Of a DNA stretch of 55,472 nucleotides, positions 2-6,807 are shown in pieces (position 1 is the stretch's first letter; the number at the start of each line of letters is the position of its first letter). The notes under the pieces are model-generated. The model searched no databases. It was not told the origin of the DNA and was given only the letters and a program-made list of their open reading frames with translations. A program made the position numbers and the translations under genes. Origin of the DNA: an uncultured Sphingomonadaceae bacterium (GTDB lineage Bacteria > Pseudomonadota > Alphaproteobacteria > Sphingomonadales > Sphingomonadaceae); assembly GCA_964632055.1 (NCBI GenBank), contig CAZWEY010000001.1, forward strand, positions 1 through 55,472. Direction: 5' to 3'.

Positions 2-1045
2 CTGGCCGAAAACGAAACGCGGCGTGCCGTCGATGGGCGCGAAGCCGACGAAGCACGGGCGGCAGTCGCACTGGAGGAGCTGCTGGCGGACACGCTGACC
101 GGGCAGGTGCGGTTGCAGGCCAGCGGCGGCGCCGTTCTCCAGACGGCGGGCGCGGCGATACTCGCCCTGACCCTCTGGCTGGCGGTGGAGCGGTGGCATG
201 TGCCTGCCTTGAGCCTGATCCCTCTCGTTGCCCTGTTCGCGCGCTTATTGCCCCTGACCAGTGCGCTGCAGGCGCAATGGGAGGCCTGGCTGGCGACGCG
301 TCCTTCGCTTGATGCGGTGATGGCGCTGCTGGCTGAGCTGGAGGCTTCGCGCGAGGATCCTGCTGATCTGCCCACGCTCGCCTCGCCTTGCCAGTCGATC
401 GCGCTGTCCGGCGTTGCCTTGCGCCATGAAGGCGGCAAGGGGGTGGAAGGGGTGGAGCTTGTCCTGCCCGTCGGATCGCTCAGCGTTCTCTCCGGTCCTT
501 CGGGCGCGGGCAAATCGACACTGGCCGACATCCTCTCGGGTCTGGTCGAGCCTGACGAAGGCGAGTTGCGGATCGACGGCAAGCCGCTGGGACCATGCGA
601 ACGCCTCGCCTGGCGCAGGCACGTCGCCTATGTCCAGCAACAGCCCGACCTGTTCAGAGGCACGATCCGCGACAATCTGCGCATTGCACGGCCAGATGCC
701 AGCGATGCACAGATCGAACAGGCGCTGCATCTGGCATCGGCACAGTTCGTGCTCGACCGGGCAAGCGGGCTGGACACCGGGACGGGCGATGACGGGTTGC
801 GTCTTTCCGGCGGAGAGCGCCAGCGCATAGCACTGGCCCGGGCGCTGCTGAGAGAGCCGGACCTGCTGATCTTCGATGAGCCGACCAGCGCGCTCGACCC
901 GCAAAACAGCGCGGCGGTGATTGCGGCGATTGCCGGATTGCGCGGCAAGGTGACGATGCTGGTTATCAGCCATGGCGGCGAGCTTGCCGCCCTTGCCGAT
1001 CAGCTGTTGCGGATCGAGCGGGGAAGGCTCTTGCTGGCTGAATGA
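2..1045 (+). CDS. ABC exporter, fused permease/ATP-binding protein (5' end outside window)
   Basis: The frame is open from nt 2 to the window edge. A hydrophobic segment is followed by Walker A GPSGAGKST, ABC signature LSGGERQRIALARAL, Walker B LLIFDEPTSALD and an ISH H-loop. Confidence 0.88.
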   Translation: MAENETRRAVDGREADEARAAVALEELLADTLTGQVRLQASGGAVLQTAGAAILALTLWLAVERWHVPALSLIPLVALFARLLPLTSALQAQWEAWLATRPSLDAVMALLAELEASREDPADLPTLASPCQSIALSGVALRHEGGKGVEGVELVLPVGSLSVLSGPSGAGKSTLADILSGLVEPDEGELRIDGKPLGPCERLAWRRHVAYVQQQPDLFRGTIRDNLRIARPDASDAQIEQALHLASAQFVLDRASGLDTGTGDDGLRLSGGERQRIALARALLREPDLLIFDEPTSALDPQNSAAVIAAIAGLRGKVTMLVISHGGELAALADQLLRIERGRLLLAE

Positions 1046-1134
1046 GAAATTCAGCGCCCATTCACGGCCCGATCGGCTATATGGTCCTTAGCCGGGCACA
1101 CCCCATTGCCCGCGTGGAAGGACAACAGGCCATT

Positions 1135-1644
1135 ATGAAGATCGCAGGTTTCAATCACTTCCTCGCCCCCGCCGCAGGCGTTGCCATGGCTCTGGCGGCC
1201 CCGCTCGCCATTCCGGCCGCTCATGCCGAGCCAGTGGCTCCCGGCCATTGCACCGGCGATCTTTCGGGCAAGGGCTGGCTCAATGTCGAGGTGACCGGCG
1301 TGCGCAACAGCGAGGGGTTGATGGCGATCACCATCTATGATGGCAATCGCAGCGACAAGTTCCTGCGCTCCAAGGGATCGCTCGATGTCGTGCGGGTCCC
1401 GGCGAAGGCTGGCAAGACGGTGGCTTGCGTGAAACTGCCCGCCAATGGCGTCTATGCGCTGGCGGTCTATCATGACGAGGATTCCAGCCGAAAGCTCAAC
1501 CGTGGCGGGATCGGCATGCCGACCGAAGGCTTCGGTTTTTCCAATAATCCAAGCACCTTTGCAGGCCTTCCGAGCTTCAGCTCGGTGCGGCTCGCGGTGC
1601 CCAGGCCGGGGCTGAGCGTCCGGATCAGCCTGACCTATCCCTGA
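1135..1644 (+). CDS. secreted DUF2141-like protein
   Basis: ATG 1135 follows GGAAGGA. The N-terminal signal peptide is MKIAGFNHFLAPAAGVAMALAAPLAIPAAHA. The GMPTEGFGFSNNP block is recalled from DUF2141. The upstream in-frame ATG at 1042 has low GC3 and would bury the signal peptide. Confidence 0.6.
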   Translation: MKIAGFNHFLAPAAGVAMALAAPLAIPAAHAEPVAPGHCTGDLSGKGWLNVEVTGVRNSEGLMAITIYDGNRSDKFLRSKGSLDVVRVPAKAGKTVACVKLPANGVYALAVYHDEDSSRKLNRGGIGMPTEGFGFSNNPSTFAGLPSFSSVRLAVPRPGLSVRISLTYP

Positions 1645-2384
1645 TTGGCGAGAAGCTGGCGCACATCGGCAAGGTCTGCGCTCTTGTCGATATCCACTGC
1701 GGCAAGCCCTTGCCGTGTCACCACCACCCGCGCGCTGATGCCGATACGCTGGCCCAGCCGTGCGACCGCGTCTGACAGGCTGAGCGTGCCGCACAAATAG
1801 GACCAGAGCGTGCCGACCCCCAGCCGGGCTGCAATGCGCCAGGGGCGTTTGCGATCGGCTTCGACCTGTTGCCAGGTGGCGATCGCTGCGCGGCCCTTGT
1901 CGCTGGCGATATGAAACAGGTTGCAGGTCTTCCACTGGCCATCGGCAAAACGCAGCCATGTTCGCTGCGCGCCCGGCATGGCGGCTTCCACATCCTCGCG
2001 CCGCACCGCCAGCAGCGACACATCAGCTTCGGCAGGGGTCGCCCCGATCAGCTCACGCACCCATGATGGCTGCAACAGCGCATGGTCGCTGGTGGTGACC
2101 AGCAGGGGCGCTCCCAGCTTATCAAGCCCGCGCGCGACGCTGCCGCTGGGGCCGCTGGCAGGCGGGATGATCTGCGCGCCCAGAGTTCGGGCCAGAGCGA
2201 TGATCGCAGGGTCGTCGGCAACGATGGCAATGGGCGCGATGCCAGCTTCGGCCAGCGCCCGGTGCACCCTCTCCAGCACGGTTGCGCCACCGAGTTCGAT
2301 CAGCCCCTTGTGGGAAAGGCCGATGGAGCGGGCGAAGGGATCGCCGCCTGGCCGTGTTCCGGCGAGAATCAGCCCGGCGGTCAT
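1635..2384 (-). CDS. MobA-like NTP transferase (nucleotidyltransferase)
   Basis: The N-terminus MTAGLILAGTRPGG...KGLIELGGATVLERV is typical of the NTP_transf_3 fold. Its ATG overlaps the stop of the upstream gene (ATGA at 2381-2384). Its 3' end overlaps the convergent DUF2141 gene by 10 nt. Confidence 0.7.
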   Translation of the reverse strand: MTAGLILAGTRPGGDPFARSIGLSHKGLIELGGATVLERVHRALAEAGIAPIAIVADDPAIIALARTLGAQIIPPASGPSGSVARGLDKLGAPLLVTTSDHALLQPSWVRELIGATPAEADVSLLAVRREDVEAAMPGAQRTWLRFADGQWKTCNLFHIASDKGRAAIATWQQVEADRKRPWRIAARLGVGTLWSYLCGTLSLSDAVARLGQRIGISARVVVTRQGLAAVDIDKSADLADVRQLLANQG

Positions 2385-3289
2385 CGTGCCCGCCCTTTCG
2401 CGCGCCAGACTTGCCAGAGGACTGCAGGCGCGGCCAGCACCGGGTGGTTTTCGCGCCATGGCGTCATCTTGACCGCAATTCCCGTATGCCGCTCCACCTT
2501 CCATGCGGCATAGCGGCCCGCGCCCGCAAATGTGGTGCTGGCGCGGATCAGCCGGACCAGATTGTAGGGCTTGCCCAGTGCGCGCCGCAGCCGCCACCAG
2601 CGCAAGGTGCGGCGGCGTTCAGCAGGGGCTAGTTGCGGGCGCAAAAGCGCCCCTTCCTGCGCAGTATCGATGCCAGCTGCTTCGAGCGCCACCGCCAGAA
2701 GCCCCTCAAAATGGGTTTGGTTTGCGGCAAGGATCGAATCTTCCCGCCCCGGCTTTTCCACCCTGAATTCGGCCTTGTAGGTCTGGCGGAACAGTCCGCG
2801 CCAATAATCAGCCGCGCTGGCCTCTTCCGGCCCCAGCGCCACCGCCAGCCGCGCGGCGGTCATCGCGGCAGCACAGATTGCTGCGCTGAGCTCGGCGCTG
2901 GCTGCCTCATCGGCCTGCCAGACCAGCGCGCTTGGCTGGACGAAGCGGGCCCAGATGGTCGTATCCAGCAATTCGCCGGCCGCGGCCCTGCCGAATGTCG
3001 ACAGCGTCATTGTCGCCACCTTGGCGCGCAAGGCGATGCCGCCATGGTCCCATTCGTGATAGCTGACGCGAGGCCAGATGCCGCTTTGCACAGCGCCATC
3101 CGTCAGAACATAGAAATCGAGCACCCCATCGAGTGATCCGGTTCTGAGGTTGGAGCCATAGAACAGCACGGCGCGACAGGGCTTGTTCCCGGTCGTAGCT
3201 TCTGTCAGCCGCGCGGCAAAGGCGCGCACGGCCTCGTCAACAGGCGCTGCAAGCGCCTGCGCCATGCGTGCCGGAAGCTTAGCGCTCAC
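2381..3289 (-). CDS. conserved hypothetical protein; possible Tam41/Mmp37-like nucleotidyltransferase (weak)
   Basis: The 302-codon ORF has high GC3 and a GTG start overlapping the kinase stop (GTGA). The LFYGSNLRTGSLDGVLDFYVL and TTIWARFVQPSALVW blocks resemble Tam41-type CDP-DAG synthases by eye only. Confidence 0.45.
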   Translation of the reverse strand: MSAKLPARMAQALAAPVDEAVRAFAARLTEATTGNKPCRAVLFYGSNLRTGSLDGVLDFYVLTDGAVQSGIWPRVSYHEWDHGGIALRAKVATMTLSTFGRAAAGELLDTTIWARFVQPSALVWQADEAASAELSAAICAAAMTAARLAVALGPEEASAADYWRGLFRQTYKAEFRVEKPGREDSILAANQTHFEGLLAVALEAAGIDTAQEGALLRPQLAPAERRRTLRWWRLRRALGKPYNLVRLIRASTTFAGAGRYAAWKVERHTGIAVKMTPWRENHPVLAAPAVLWQVWRAKGRAR

Positions 3290-4314
3290 GGGGCGACGAA
3301 ATGCAGCGGCGGGCCTGCGCGCAGGCGATAGCGCCCCGCCGGGAAAGCCTCGCCATCGAGGATGAAGCGGTCCTCCACCTCCAGAAAGGCCTCTTCTGCT
3401 GCGCCGCGATGGACACCAAGCCTTGCGAAGAGCGGCTTATCCCAGCCAGCAAGCAGGAAAGGCAGCAGCAGGACCACGCGTCTGAGCGGCCTGTCGAGCG
3501 CGCCATATTTGAGCGTGCCTGTGACCTTGCCGAACAGCTTCATGCCAAGCGGGAAGGTTTCCAGCGTCGAGAATATCGCGGCATAGCGGCGATGCGCTTC
3601 GCCATGGGTGCTGTGAGGAACCTCGAAGCCATCTGCAAAAAGGCGCATGGCGGAAATCTTGCGCCAGGGGCTTTTGCCGAAACCGAACAGGGCCTGGATG
3701 ATGCCGAAAACCGCAGTGAGCGCGACGGCAAAACTGTTGAAAGCGCCATAGCGATGGGCGGTCTGGCCTGCCTGTGTCGCAACCGTGAACAGGCCCGCGC
3801 CAAGGATGAAGCCCATGGCTTGCCCTGGTGCGCCGCCGGGCTGGTCCACCAGGATTGGCCGGCGCTCGACCAGTCGCATTTCACCGGCAAGTTTCAACGC
3901 TTCAGGCAGCGACCATTTACCCGGCAAGCCCAGGTCGAACGCCAGCGCATTGGTCTTGCCCTTGGGAAGAACGATCAGCGGCGGCCATGTATCGCCATAG
4001 ACGGCAGCACCGCAGGTCAGAACGTCGCGCACGGTGCCATCGCCGCCATCGACCGCCAGAAAATCGATCTGGCGGGCCTTGAAATCGGCGAGGATGCCGG
4101 AAAGCTCCTGTCTTGTCTGGGGGGCATGAGTCAGCACGCTCGGGCTGTCTGACATTTCAGGAATGCGGCCCTTGTTGCGGTGGCTGCGCGGATTGCGGAT
4201 AACGCCGATCAGCGGTTCGGTCCGCTGCTTGCGGGGGCTATCGGGCGCAGGCGCGCCTTGCGCCGGGGGCGCAGCACCGGGAAGCTGCTCGAACTCGTAA
4301 AGGCTGCTGTCCAT
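3286..4314 (-). CDS. DAGK_cat-family lipid kinase (diacylglycerol/sphingoid/ceramide-kinase-like)
   Basis: It carries the VDGGDGTVRDVL (GGDGT) motif and LPKGKTNALA. A strong RBS (AAGGAGG) lies 5 nt upstream of ATG 4314. Confidence 0.8.
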   Translation of the reverse strand: MDSSLYEFEQLPGAAPPAQGAPAPDSPRKQRTEPLIGVIRNPRSHRNKGRIPEMSDSPSVLTHAPQTRQELSGILADFKARQIDFLAVDGGDGTVRDVLTCGAAVYGDTWPPLIVLPKGKTNALAFDLGLPGKWSLPEALKLAGEMRLVERRPILVDQPGGAPGQAMGFILGAGLFTVATQAGQTAHRYGAFNSFAVALTAVFGIIQALFGFGKSPWRKISAMRLFADGFEVPHSTHGEAHRRYAAIFSTLETFPLGMKLFGKVTGTLKYGALDRPLRRVVLLLPFLLAGWDKPLFARLGVHRGAAEEAFLEVEDRFILDGEAFPAGRYRLRAGPPLHFVAP

Positions 4315-4337
4315 TGCCGCCTCCTTATTCCCGCCGC

Positions 4338-4366
4338 GCGCCAGAAAGACTAGATATTTCTGGCGC
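4338..4366. promoter_or_regulatory. perfect 10-bp inverted repeat GCGCCAGAAA-N9-TTTCTGGCGC in divergent promoter region
   Basis: Read directly from the sequence. It lies 24-52 nt upstream of the lipid-kinase start, between divergent operons. It could be an operator or a 5'-UTR hairpin. Confidence 0.4.
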
Positions 4367-4467
4367 AGTCCCCCGTTAAGAGCACTTTTCGACTATTCCG
4401 CCGCAATCGCGCGATCGCAATGCGTGACGATTGCGCAAAGCGGATGGGGGCCTTAGGGCAAAGGCCC

Positions 4468-5628
4468 ATGAACGCAAGCACGCTCAAGCCCGCCTTTGCT
4501 ACTATCGGTTCCAACCCCGTCCGCCTGTGGGGGCTGAGTATGGAGGAGAGAATCCGCCGTCTGGCGCGGGCGGCTGGCCTGCGCGATGATGCGGGCATTG
4601 CCGATAACGGACCTATTATCCTCACCAATGCCGCCCATGCCTTCGATCCGGCCTGGTTTCGCCATGTTGCGGAGATGCCGGGGATGGTTCTCACTCTTGG
4701 CGGGGTGCCGGTGATCGGTCATGCCTGCAATGCGGCGCAGGCCGATGCCTTGCGCGAAGCAATCGGTGCCAATCGCCCGGTTGCCGCGGCAAGCGGTCTG
4801 GTGGAGATTACCGCCTTTGAAGATGGCCCGACCATCGAGAACAAGCAGTTGCGCAAGCGCGAAACGCCCTTTCTCATGCCGCTGACCGATCAGACGGTGC
4901 GCGCGGCCGAACGCGCCAGCTATTTTGGCGCCTACAAGGGCGTGACCGACATCCTCACCAAATATCTCTGGCCGGAATGGGCGCTGGTGCTGACCCGCAT
5001 CGCCGCGCGCATCGGCATGACGCCCAATCAGGTTACCACCATCGGGGCGATCCTGTGCGTGGTTGCGACTTTTTATTTCGCTGTGGGCCAATACTGGCTG
5101 GGCATGGCGCTCGGCCTCGGCTTCATGGTGCTCGATACGGTGGATGGAAAGCTTGCTCGCTGCACCATCACCTCGTCCGCATGGGGCAATGTTTTCGACC
5201 ATGGCATGGATCTGGTGCACCCGCCCTTCTGGTGGTGGTTCTGGGCAACCGGCCTTGCCACCTGGGGTCTTGCCTATGACGATGGCAGCTTCGGGCCAAC
5301 CTTCTGGTGGGTGCAGGGCGCAATCCAGGGTGGCTATATCGTCCAGCGATTGATCGAAGGGGTATTCATGCGCCGTAACGCCATGATGCACATCCATGTC
5401 TGGCAACGCTTCGACAGCCAGTTTCGCCTGATTACCGCAAGGCGCAACCCCAATATGGTCATCCTGTTCGTCTCCATGCTGTTTGCCCGGCCTGATCTTG
5501 GCCTGATCGCGGTTGCATGGTGGACGGCGATTTCCTGCGCTGTTCATGCGGTGCGGCTGGTTCAGGCCGAGCTTTACCGCGCGCGTGGCGGGACCATTCG
5601 CAGCTGGCTTTCGGATGCAGGCGCATGA
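4468..5628 (+). CDS. CDP-alcohol phosphatidyltransferase family membrane protein with soluble N-terminal extension
   Basis: It carries the motif DTVDGKLARCTITSSAWGNVFDHGMD (D-x2-DG-x2-AR-x8-G-x3-D-x3-D), with multiple hydrophobic helices after residue ~180. The start is ambiguous (ATG 4420, 4444 or 4468). I chose 4468, which follows AAGG. Confidence 0.85.
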   Translation: MNASTLKPAFATIGSNPVRLWGLSMEERIRRLARAAGLRDDAGIADNGPIILTNAAHAFDPAWFRHVAEMPGMVLTLGGVPVIGHACNAAQADALREAIGANRPVAAASGLVEITAFEDGPTIENKQLRKRETPFLMPLTDQTVRAAERASYFGAYKGVTDILTKYLWPEWALVLTRIAARIGMTPNQVTTIGAILCVVATFYFAVGQYWLGMALGLGFMVLDTVDGKLARCTITSSAWGNVFDHGMDLVHPPFWWWFWATGLATWGLAYDDGSFGPTFWWVQGAIQGGYIVQRLIEGVFMRRNAMMHIHVWQRFDSQFRLITARRNPNMVILFVSMLFARPDLGLIAVAWWTAISCAVHAVRLVQAELYRARGGTIRSWLSDAGA

Positions 5629-6053
5629 ACGCGACACTGGAAAAATTTGGCTGGCCGGCAACGCTGGTGCGCGAGTTCGATCACTGGGTGGTGCTGGCGC
5701 GGGCCGCTCAGCCGACGCTGGGAAGCCTCGTGCTCGCCGCCAAGTCCGATGCCACTGCTTTTTCCGATCTGCCGGGCGAGGCTCATGCGGAATTGAAGCA
5801 GGTGACGACAGCGATCGAACAGGCGCTCGGCGAGGCCGTGAGCTACGAGAAGCTCAATTACCTGATGCTGATGATGGTCGATCCCCACGTCCATTTCCAC
5901 GTGATCCCCCGATACGAGGGATCGCGCGAGTGGAGCGGGCGGGAGTTTGTCGATGTGGGCTGGCCAAAAGTGCCTGACCTTGGCCATGCGGTGGCGTTGC
6001 AAGGGGGTGAACTGGCCGCGCTCGTTGACTGGTTGAAGGCGAATTTCGCCTAG
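5625..6053 (+). CDS. HIT-family nucleotide hydrolase/transferase
   Basis: It carries the histidine triad HVHFHVIPRY. Its ATG overlaps the stop of the upstream gene (ATGA 5625-5628). Confidence 0.85.
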   Translation: MNATLEKFGWPATLVREFDHWVVLARAAQPTLGSLVLAAKSDATAFSDLPGEAHAELKQVTTAIEQALGEAVSYEKLNYLMLMMVDPHVHFHVIPRYEGSREWSGREFVDVGWPKVPDLGHAVALQGGELAALVDWLKANFA

Positions 6054-6796
6054 GCCGCTTCCCACTTGTCCGTCAGCGCGCGGGCGATCTCGATGTCGTT
6101 GAGGAAATCGACCTCGGCCCAGTCCATTCCCTCGATCGAGACGGTGCCGACCTTGCCGGTGGGCGCAAGGCTGTCGATCACCTTCAGATACCAGTGCTGC
6201 ACGCCTTCGGGGGTGCGCATGGCTGCGCGCACGGCATTGCGGAACAGTTCTGCGCCTTCGCCCCGGAAGGCGAGGAAACCGATCGATTCGGCGTTGCTTT
6301 CCTCTGCGGTCAAGGTCTTGCCGATGCGGCGCAGCTGGCCATTCTCAGCGCGCGACACCTTCATGTCGTCGCTATCGTAAGCGGGCTTCACATCCACCGT
6401 CACGGCGATCGGCCAGTCCGAGCCTTGCTGCACGCAGGCCACGATGTCCTCGGACACCAGAGTGTCGCCATTGAGAATGAGGAAGTCGCGCTCCATCGCC
6501 TTTCGTGCAATCCAGCACGAACCGAGATTATCGGCCACCTTGTAGAACGGGTTGAACTTCGTTGAGATCGTCACGCGAGGATCATCGATCCGGGCGATAA
6601 CCTCGTCGACCATGTCGGTCATGAAGCCCGTGACGATGTCGATATGCTTCACCCCGCCGCGCGCCAGCATTTCCACCTGCCATTCGAGCAGGGTGCGGCC
6701 CGAAAAGTCGATCAGGCACTTGGGACGCTCGGCCGTCAGCGGCAGCAGCCGCGAGCCTTGACCGGCGCTCAGCAGGATGGCGTGCTCGATAGGCAT
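6050..6796 (-). CDS. LicC/IPCT-like nucleotidyltransferase (alcohol- or sugar-phosphate cytidylyl/nucleotidyl transferase)
   Basis: It has the N-terminal AILLSAGQGSRLLPLT (G-x-G-x-R-L) motif plus the NPFY..N and LNGDTL blocks. It lies 11 nt downstream of the NMO gene. Its stop is shared as CTAG with the convergent HIT gene. Confidence 0.78.
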   Translation of the reverse strand: MPIEHAILLSAGQGSRLLPLTAERPKCLIDFSGRTLLEWQVEMLARGGVKHIDIVTGFMTDMVDEVIARIDDPRVTISTKFNPFYKVADNLGSCWIARKAMERDFLILNGDTLVSEDIVACVQQGSDWPIAVTVDVKPAYDSDDMKVSRAENGQLRRIGKTLTAEESNAESIGFLAFRGEGAELFRNAVRAAMRTPEGVQHWYLKVIDSLAPTGKVGTVSIEGMDWAEVDFLNDIEIARALTDKWEAA

Positions 6797-6807
6797 GGGC
6801 CTTACGC

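Follow-up and report, generated by a model that had tools for sequence, protein, structure and literature searches.

The element studied here is a cluster of six genes in a 55,472-nt stretch of DNA from an uncultured Sphingomonadaceae bacterium (contig CAZWEY010000001.1 of assembly GCA_964632055.1; this whole stretch is called the window below). The window proteins were searched against Pfam and NCBIfam, and the junctions between the genes were read directly from the DNA. Three genes of the cluster, for a lipid kinase, a protein of 302 aa and a MobA-like nucleotidyltransferase, were found to be divided by a divergent spacer from the genes for a CDP-alcohol transferase and a HIT-family protein, on which a LicC-like nucleotidyltransferase gene converges (Table 1). 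The kinase gene and the 302-aa gene overlap in GTGA. The MobA-like gene starts on the stop codon of the 302-aa gene in an ATGA overlap, and the transferase and HIT genes are joined in the same way; the convergent stop codons of the HIT and LicC-like genes share CTAG, and only 11 nt separate the stop codon of a neighbouring NMO gene from the start of the LicC-like gene. The six open reading frames and their domains, like the overlaps at the junctions and the 153-nt spacer, were thus all where the original prediction, made from the letters of the DNA alone, had placed them, and its count of three nucleotidyltransferases also held, with folds that differ among the three.

Table 1. Features of the six-gene cluster in the window
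Feature	Position	Strand	Evidence
MobA/CofC-like nucleotidyltransferase, CC_1153 orthologue	1635-2384	-	Pfam NTP_transf_3, E 2.5e-15
cpgC orthologue (CC_1161), 302 aa, predicted Tam41-fold nucleotidyltransferase	2381-3289	-	BLASTP to CpgC, AlphaFold2 model
cpgB orthologue (CC_1160), predicted bacterial ceramide kinase	3286-4314	-	Pfam DAGK_cat, E 7e-10
Divergent intergenic spacer, 153 nt, between cpgB-cpgC-CC_1153 and cpgA-HIT	4315-4467		Alignment of relatives' spacers
cpgA orthologue (CC_1159), predicted CDP-alcohol phosphotransferase	4468-5628	+	Pfam CDP-OH_P_transf, E 3e-8
HIT-family protein, CC_1157 (CCNA_01215) orthologue	5625-6053	+	Pfam HIT, E 2e-6
cpgD orthologue (CC_1152/CCNA_01210), predicted CTP:phosphoglycerate cytidylyltransferase	6050-6796	-	Pfam NTP_transferase, E 1e-12

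The start of the transferase gene was set at the ATG at 4468 and not at 4420; its homologues start with MNAS. In the database gene call, the 302-aa protein begins 8 codons further downstream (294 aa). The GTG start was favoured for this gene because its 4-nt overlap with the kinase gene was kept in two related loci (L008 and L010) and in Caulobacter. Five of the six genes passed the Pfam gathering threshold, the exception being the 302-aa gene. The cluster exceeds what chance would give, as seen from the Pfam matches, from the family of the 302-aa protein, which comprises about 900 clusters at 50% identity, and from a gene order that recurs in many independent contigs. A megablast search of the locus against PLSDB, made with regard to a plasmid origin, gave no match.

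Counterparts of these genes belong to the Caulobacter pathway for ceramide phosphoglycerate (CPG) and ceramide diphosphoglycerate (CPG2), anionic sphingolipids whose synthesis was described from 2022 to 2026. Gene deletions combined with liquid chromatography and tandem mass spectrometry showed that CCNA_01218/CpgB was needed for ceramide-1-phosphate, CCNA_01219/CpgC for CPG and CCNA_01217/CpgA for CPG2 (Zik et al. 2022, PMC9393093), and ceramide kinase activity of CpgB was then demonstrated in vitro (10.1101/2023.05.01.538943). CC_1152, CC_1153 and, partly, CC_1158 were added to the CPG2 step in a study that also reported an InterPro Tam41 signature in CC_1161/CpgC, a CofC-like signature in CC_1153 and a CDP-alcohol signature in CC_1159 (Olea-Ozuna et al. 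2024, PMC11324152). CC_1152/CpgD was found to make CDP-glycerate as a CTP:phosphoglycerate cytidylyltransferase, and crystal structures followed (PMC12275187, PMC13228409). Deletion of cpgA or cpgD in Caulobacter abolishes CPG2, and CPG accumulates (PMC9393093, PMC11324152, PMC12275187).

For comparison, the Caulobacter locus was located in C. vibrioides DSM 9893 by means of a published cloning-primer sequence (oLOP448, PMC11324152), and a look-up with CpgA of this strain returned a 21-kb locus (L003) carrying the whole CC_1152-CC_1168 cluster. The six window proteins were compared with the Caulobacter proteins by BLASTP, and the Caulobacter proteins with the whole window by reverse tblastn. 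The MobA-like protein matched CC_1153 (CCNA_01211; 46.7% identity over 242 aa, E 7e-66), the 302-aa protein matched CpgC (50.5% over 305 aa, E 3e-93), the kinase matched CpgB (37.8% over 307 aa, E 6e-53), and the LicC-like protein matched CpgD (CCNA_01210; 50.8% over 244 of 248 aa, E 2e-79). The match of the CDP-alcohol transferase to CpgA (42.7% over 377 aa, E 2e-91) spanned residues 8-383 and so took in its N-terminal extension, and the HIT protein was 54% identical to CC_1157 (E 2e-45) over the first 125 of its 142 residues. Each window protein had a single Caulobacter match, essentially full-length for five of them and shorter for the HIT protein, and there were no cross-hits among the three nucleotidyltransferases. 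The reverse search recovered the same six genes.

It may be concluded that the locus is probably that half of the bacterial ceramide (di)phosphoglycerate pathway which concerns the head group, carried by a Novosphingobium-like sphingomonad, a reading to which a probability of about 0.85 was assigned. The original prediction had described the genes as a pathway that could not be mapped onto any known one. This cannot be maintained: all six proteins are 38-54% identical, one to one, to products of the Caulobacter CPG/CPG2 genes, for which the genetics and part of the biochemistry have been published. The cluster is real, but the pathway has been described before, and a table of its sphingomonad orthologues has been published (PMC11324152). 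Orthologues assigned to a known route, which the prediction itself had named as evidence that would speak against it, are in essence what was found, those of Sphingomonas wittichii being listed in that paper.

Besides the one-to-one set of proteins, the window shares with Caulobacter the 4-nt overlap of cpgB and cpgC, the catalytic motifs and the substrate contacts of CpgD. The order of the genes differs. In Caulobacter, cpgA-cpgB-cpgC form a single operon beside spt, divergent from CC_1158-HIT, and cpgD and CC_1153 lie 6 kb off, past lptFG and cerS. In the window, cpgA is separated from cpgB-cpgC and coupled to the HIT gene, the CC_1153 orthologue stands behind cpgC, cpgD converges on the HIT gene, and no ceramide, Lpt, flippase or CC_1158 metallophosphoesterase gene is nearby; tblastn of the 55-kb window found no homologue of lptF/G or of the CC_1166 flippase. 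In S. wittichii RW1 (Sphingomonas/Rhizorhabdus), where the orthologues had already been mapped (Swit_1306-1309 and Swit_3902-3903; S2B table of PMC11324152), the consecutive block CC_1153-cpgA-HIT-cpgD, the adjacent cpgC/cpgB pair and the absence of CC_1158 are shared with the window. The two S. wittichii blocks lie far apart, however, with cpgC/cpgB adjoining spt, whereas in the window and its Novosphingobium relatives (L006, L008, L010 and L093) they are fused around one divergent spacer, with CC_1153 behind cpgC.

The assignment of the LicC-like protein could be examined at the level of single residues. In NCBIfam it gave a full-length, sub-threshold match to the IPCT/DIPPS model NF041135 (E 2e-13; IPCT is inositol-1-phosphate cytidylyltransferase), and a search of PDB sequences, in a copy lacking the CpgD structures, matched only generic nucleotidyltransferases. 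Thirteen CpgD residues contacting CTP, Mg or glycerate were taken from the crystal structures (PMC13228409). Eleven of them (G12, R16, K26, N90, N110, G111, D112, M147, K161, S170 and W201) were identical in the window protein, including all contacts to the glycerate moiety (N90, N110, M147, K161 and S170); T93 was replaced by S, which retains the hydroxyl, and T88, a backbone-only contact, by A. By sequence, then, the product of this gene is identified as CpgD, predicted to be the CTP:phosphoglycerate cytidylyltransferase that makes CDP-glycerate.

Its operon membership had been left ambiguous in the original prediction owing to the short distance to the catabolic NMO gene. This ambiguity was largely resolved: the gene belongs with the cpg set, being convergent with cpgA in 44 of 49 loci of the metagenome scan described below, and only in the window and its closest relative does it adjoin NMO. 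A functional NMO-cpgD unit was rejected as a conserved feature, since in L008 a Polysacc_synt flippase gene sits between the two and elsewhere cpgD is mostly divergent from Polysacc_synt. Co-transcription of cpgD with the NMO operon is possible in the source organism.

In most related loci (L008, L011, L014, L017, L018 and others), cpgD was divergent from a Polysacc_synt flippase gene whose product is 25-29% identical to Caulobacter CC_1166, a proposed sphingolipid flippase. This gene was missing beside cpgD in the window (6797-6807) and in L010, where cpgD stands about 10 nt after the catabolic NMO gene; cpgD of these two loci may depend on read-through from a fatty-acid-type catabolic operon.

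The 302-aa protein had no Pfam match, PF09139 included, and no NCBIfam match. An AlphaFold2 model built on a 67-sequence alignment was of high quality (predicted local distance difference test, pLDDT, 94.7; predicted template modelling score 0.91). Its top five Foldseek matches in PDB were all Tam41 CDP-diacylglycerol synthases (6ig4, 6ig2, 7ecd), with a probability of 1.0 and template modelling (TM) scores of 0.46-0.58 over 279-301 aligned columns at 10-13% identity; aminoglycoside nucleotidyltransferases came next, with much lower TM scores. The weak resemblance to Tam41/Mmp37 suspected in the original prediction was thereby borne out for the fold. A sequence link was faint. PF09139 was matched weakly by 3 of the 67 family members (best E 5e-5), and in searches of PDB sequences the protein alone gave no match and a profile search also missed Tam41, which is why only the label "Tam41-fold" was used. 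On the model, the protein is best described as having a predicted Tam41 fold and not as a member of the Tam41 family. With Tam41/Mmp37, the mitochondrial and Firmicutes CDP-diacylglycerol synthase, it shares the overall two-domain architecture and a G-S...D nucleotidyltransferase signature, of which G45, S46 and D58 are invariant across the CpgC family. The genetic substrate of CpgC is ceramide-1-phosphate, in contrast to phosphatidate for Tam41. The position of the gene directly downstream of cpgB and the full-length homology to CCNA_01219 agree with its identification as cpgC.

In the CpgA orthologue, the CDP-alcohol signature D223-x2-DG-x2-AR-x8-G-x3-D-x3-D248 was complete (residues 223-248), and 113 columns, spread over both domains, were invariant in 15 aligned homologues. 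NCBIfam gave only sub-threshold matches, the best being the PIP synthase and DIPPS models. The AlphaFold2 model had a pLDDT of 72, lower than that of the CpgC model. It aligned over its whole length to AF2299 (376-385 columns; 4o6m and 4o6n) and to IPCT-DIPPS (449 columns; 4mnd), and for this reason the N-terminal extension is predicted to be a cytoplasmic domain of the AF2299/DIPPS type. This domain is probably non-catalytic, as in AF2299, because the glycine-rich GxGxRL nucleotide loop is missing and TIGSNPVRLWG stands in its place.

The comparison with IPCT/DIPPS-type logic made in the original prediction was therefore apt: the CpgA model aligns to AF2299 and IPCT-DIPPS, and the nearest structural relative of CpgD is inositol-1-phosphate cytidylyltransferase (PMC12275187). 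In the archaeal and Thermotoga IPCT and DIPPS of di-myo-inositol phosphate synthesis, and in AF2299, a cytidylyltransferase of the LicC/IPCT fold makes a CDP-alcohol that is consumed by a CDP-alcohol phosphotransferase bearing an N-terminal domain, as would be the case here. There are also differences. The two activities reside here on separate polypeptides, the activated alcohol would be glycerate and not inositol, the acceptor would be a lipid, and the sequence identity is only 12-17%.

The CxxxCxxC motif of eukaryotic ceramide kinases is absent from bacterial CpgB. It was likewise absent from the window kinase, in which GGDG starts at residue 90, and both features match the description of CpgB (10.1101/2023.05.01.538943). 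The original prediction had considered a chain starting from ceramide phosphate to be conceivable; this idea gained support, CpgB being a biochemically proven ceramide kinase (10.1101/2023.05.01.538943). For the MobA-like protein, the best match among PDB sequences was TTHA0179 (2dpw; E 3e-21). Assignment to CofC/FbiD (2-phospho-L-lactate guanylyltransferase) was rejected; TIGR03552 was the best NCBIfam match, at 28 bits against a cut-off of 105. Judged from these matches, the protein has only its fold in common with CofC and belongs to a CC_1153/TTHA0179-like family. CC_1153 is genetically required for the conversion of CPG to CPG2 in Caulobacter (PMC11324152).

The conservation of the gene order was studied in related loci and by a metagenome scan with the CpgA alignment, which yielded 80 loci at 54-83% identity; counts were made only among loci with enough flanking DNA. 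The order of the window recurred in L006, L008, L010, L093 and metagenome loci. The closest relative (L010; CpgC 78% identical) shared the whole order, with cpgD behind NMO as in the window. The divergent core CC_1153-cpgC-cpgB / cpgA-HIT was retained in Novosphingobium sp. 9, where cpgD was absent from the locus, and in N. naphthalenivorans, where cpgD stood a few genes off. An Altererythrobacter locus (L007) had cpgB-cpgC alone. In the metagenome loci, the HIT gene lay directly downstream of cpgA on the same strand in 53 of 69 and elsewhere in the locus in 4 more, and a cpgD-like gene was found within 3.5 kb downstream of cpgA in 44 of 49, always in convergent orientation. A divergent cpgB upstream of cpgA was present in 15 of 48. 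Look-ups anchored on the HIT protein found cpgA immediately upstream in all three cases. The conserved unit is thus cpgA-HIT / cpgD, and its fusion to cpgB-cpgC-CC_1153 is a feature of the Novosphingobium-like relatives.

Alignment of 25 homologous spacers revealed a promoter-like block, TTGC...(~19 nt)...TA, 10-15 nt upstream of the cpgA start and a second conserved block, AA..AC/TAC..TTT, near cpgB, which in some relatives is interrupted by about 29 inserted nt. In the window, the block on the cpgB side is an inverted repeat, CCAGAAA-N9-TTTCTGG. A search of the spacer with E. coli-type consensus sequences gave no sigma-70 promoter or terminator match.

For the HIT protein, the Caulobacter counterpart CC_1157 had been set aside as "probably unrelated" on the ground that its mutants showed no cofitness with the cluster (PMC11324152). 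The window protein carries HVHFHVIP, in agreement with the H-phi-H-phi-H-phi-phi motif, and scored 28.7 bits with Pfam HIT, for which the cut-off is 21.5. The second histidine of the triad, which is the nucleophile, and the third were invariant among 18 orthologues, and the first was D or N in some; public annotations called the protein only "HIT family" or "Ap4A hydrolase". According to the tables of PMC11324152, the HIT orthologue adjoins cpgA in Hyphomonas and S. wittichii, adjoins cpgD in Nitrosomonas eutropha, lies within the cluster in Pseudomonas luteola and was lost together with cpgA in Zymomonas mobilis; Azotobacter vinelandii, with cpgA and cpgD and no HIT orthologue, is an exception to this linkage. 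Because of this pattern, the position downstream of cpgA in 53 of 69 loci and the convergent cpgD in 44 of 49, an accessory role of the HIT protein in the pathway is suggested, although linkage is not proof. That it is a genuine, overlooked component of CPG2 synthesis and not a bystander is a tentative proposal, given rather less than even odds. It could be a hydrolase or phosphorylase of CDP conjugates, removing or recycling CDP-glycerate or CDP-ceramide, or a GalT-like CMP transferase acting between phosphoglycerate and ceramide phosphate. It may also take over the role of the CC_1158 metallophosphoesterase in lineages that lack CC_1158.

A variant module was observed in seven metagenome loci (L036, L037, L041, L042, L043, L053 and L066), in which a convergent, diverged cpgD-like gene directly follows cpgA and there is no HIT gene. 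The products of these cpgD-like genes showed 34-41% identity, and their pocket was mostly kept, with only N90 replaced by S and W201 by Y or F. This variant may represent a HIT-independent lineage or one using a slightly different activated alcohol.

Several steps of the pathway in the window can be proposed because of orthology to steps shown in Caulobacter. CpgB would convert ceramide and ATP to ceramide-1-phosphate, CpgC would be needed for conversion of the latter to CPG, and CpgD would form CDP-glycerate from CTP and 2-phospho-D-glycerate. CpgA and the CC_1153-like enzyme would be needed for addition of the second phosphoglycerate, giving CPG2. Considering its Tam41 fold, CpgC is probably a CTP:ceramide-1-phosphate cytidylyltransferase that gives CDP-ceramide, and the activated ceramide phosphate would then be captured by glycerate or phosphoglycerate. 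CpgA probably transfers phosphoglycerate from CDP-glycerate to a hydroxyl of CPG with release of CMP, as indicated by its complete CDP-alcohol signature, its AF2299/DIPPS-like architecture and the logic of IPCT plus DIPPS. The HIT protein would probably act as an accessory enzyme on a CDP-linked intermediate or by-product, for example CDP-glycerate or CDP-ceramide.

Several points weigh against this reading. Sphingomonads are known mainly for glycosphingolipids. Lipid data were found neither for this organism nor, in the literature searched, for any sphingomonad, and for this reason the product in the source organism remains an inference. The lipid acceptor is likewise inferred, because tblastn with spt, cerS, cerR and acpR found no ceramide-synthesis gene in the 55-kb window; spt, cerS and the others must lie elsewhere in the genome, and the S. 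wittichii layout is likewise scattered. The same search found no homologue of the CC_1158 metallophosphoesterase, which contributes to CPG2 in Caulobacter. Of the six proteins, measured enzymatic activities are those of CpgB and CpgD. In addition, CpgB also phosphorylates diacylglycerol in vitro (10.1101/2023.05.01.538943).

The last point, together with the lack of ceramide-synthesis genes in the window, would fit a pathway in which the same enzyme families make another sphingomonad product, namely ceramide or diacylglycerol bearing phosphoglycerol or phosphoinositol instead of phosphoglycerate. The best sub-threshold matches of CpgA, to PIP synthase and DIPPS, point in the same direction, and ceramide phosphoglycerol reportedly builds up in a Z. 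mobilis mutant (S1 text of PMC11324152). However, Z. mobilis lacks cpgA and the HIT gene and so is no model for the window locus, the glycerate contacts of CpgD are all identical, and the six proteins match the Caulobacter set over their full length at 38-54% identity; a different head group is accordingly considered unlikely. Even less credit can be given to the headline of the original prediction, a new polar-lipid head group made by a Kennedy-type or IPCT/DIPPS-type pathway not described before. It could draw on the four of six enzymes that lack a measured activity and on the 302-aa protein that lacks a Pfam or NCBIfam match, but the genes are orthologous to those of a pathway that has been dissected by genetics and in part solved biochemically (PMC9393093, PMC11324152, PMC12275187). 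Together with the sphingomonad orthologues already in PMC11324152, this refutes it as a claim of novelty, and its probability is very small.

It could also be supposed that the product of cpgD, cpgA and the HIT gene is a soluble phosphodiester solute, such as a diglycerate phosphate resembling di-myo-inositol phosphate, and that these genes merely neighbour cpgB-cpgC. Most loci with the cpgA-HIT-cpgD module have no cpgB and cpgC close by, as the 15 of 48 loci with cpgB upstream illustrate, and its architecture resembles that of IPCT/DIPPS, the maker of a compatible solute. Against this, deletion of cpgA or cpgD in Caulobacter leads specifically to loss of the lipid CPG2 with accumulation of CPG, as cited above, and the module often adjoins the Polysacc_synt flippase gene homologous to CC_1166 and, in places, cerS and lptFG. 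A soluble product is therefore the least probable of these alternatives and can hardly be credited. Synthesis of the head group of CPG and CPG2 remains the preferred reading of the locus.

The genes around the cluster were also inspected. A DUF2141 gene (1042-1644, plus strand), whose product has a signal-peptide-like N-terminus, converges on the CC_1153-like gene with a 10-nt overlap. It recurred beside cpgB-cpgC(-CC_1153) in L006, L007, L008, L010, L093 and 10 of 31 long metagenome loci, being present even beside cpgB-cpgC alone in Altererythrobacter (L007), and was absent from the Caulobacter cluster; its product may be a functionally linked periplasmic protein. The region 2-1045 (plus strand) encodes the C-terminal ATPase part of an ABC exporter. 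Its homologue in L008 and L010 adjoins Asn_synthase, Transglut_core3 and PqqD genes, an arrangement as in lasso-peptide clusters; it therefore probably exports a lasso peptide and is no sphingolipid flippase. In a Sphingopyxis contig (L091, 10039-11714), a cpgA-HIT-cpgD-CC_1153 module has close to it a short DAGK_cat-like gene and, in translational coupling with this, a Metallophos gene; the Metallophos gene may be the counterpart of Caulobacter CC_1158, which is absent from S. wittichii and the window.

The remainder of the window (7883-55084) is a large catabolic island with genes for SnoaL, several acyl-CoA dehydrogenases, an enoyl-CoA hydratase, SDRs, a thiolase, two KstD-like FAD_binding_2 flavoproteins, a Rieske oxygenase, acyl-CoA ligases, a family III CoA-transferase, a P450, an indolepyruvate/POR-type oxidoreductase and a pyrroloquinoline quinone (PQQ) dehydrogenase. 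Its gene content resembles that for steroid or aromatic side-chain degradation, and it has no relation to the lipid locus.

The locus presents nothing categorically new. Its residual interest lies in the comparative evidence for the HIT protein in the pathway and in the compact arrangement, a six-gene version of the head-group genes that could be transferred in a single piece to reconstitute the pathway in another host. Enzymological questions on the joining of glycerate to ceramide phosphate and on the roles of CC_1153 and the HIT protein are sharpened by the Tam41 fold predicted for CpgC, by the AF2299/DIPPS architecture of CpgA and by the tight linkage of cpgA, the HIT gene and cpgD. CPG and CPG2 allow Caulobacter to survive without lipid A and are also a target of polymyxin there, and to our knowledge sphingomonads do without lipopolysaccharide altogether. 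The presence of CPG and CPG2 in sphingomonads would therefore bear on how their outer membrane carries negative charge.

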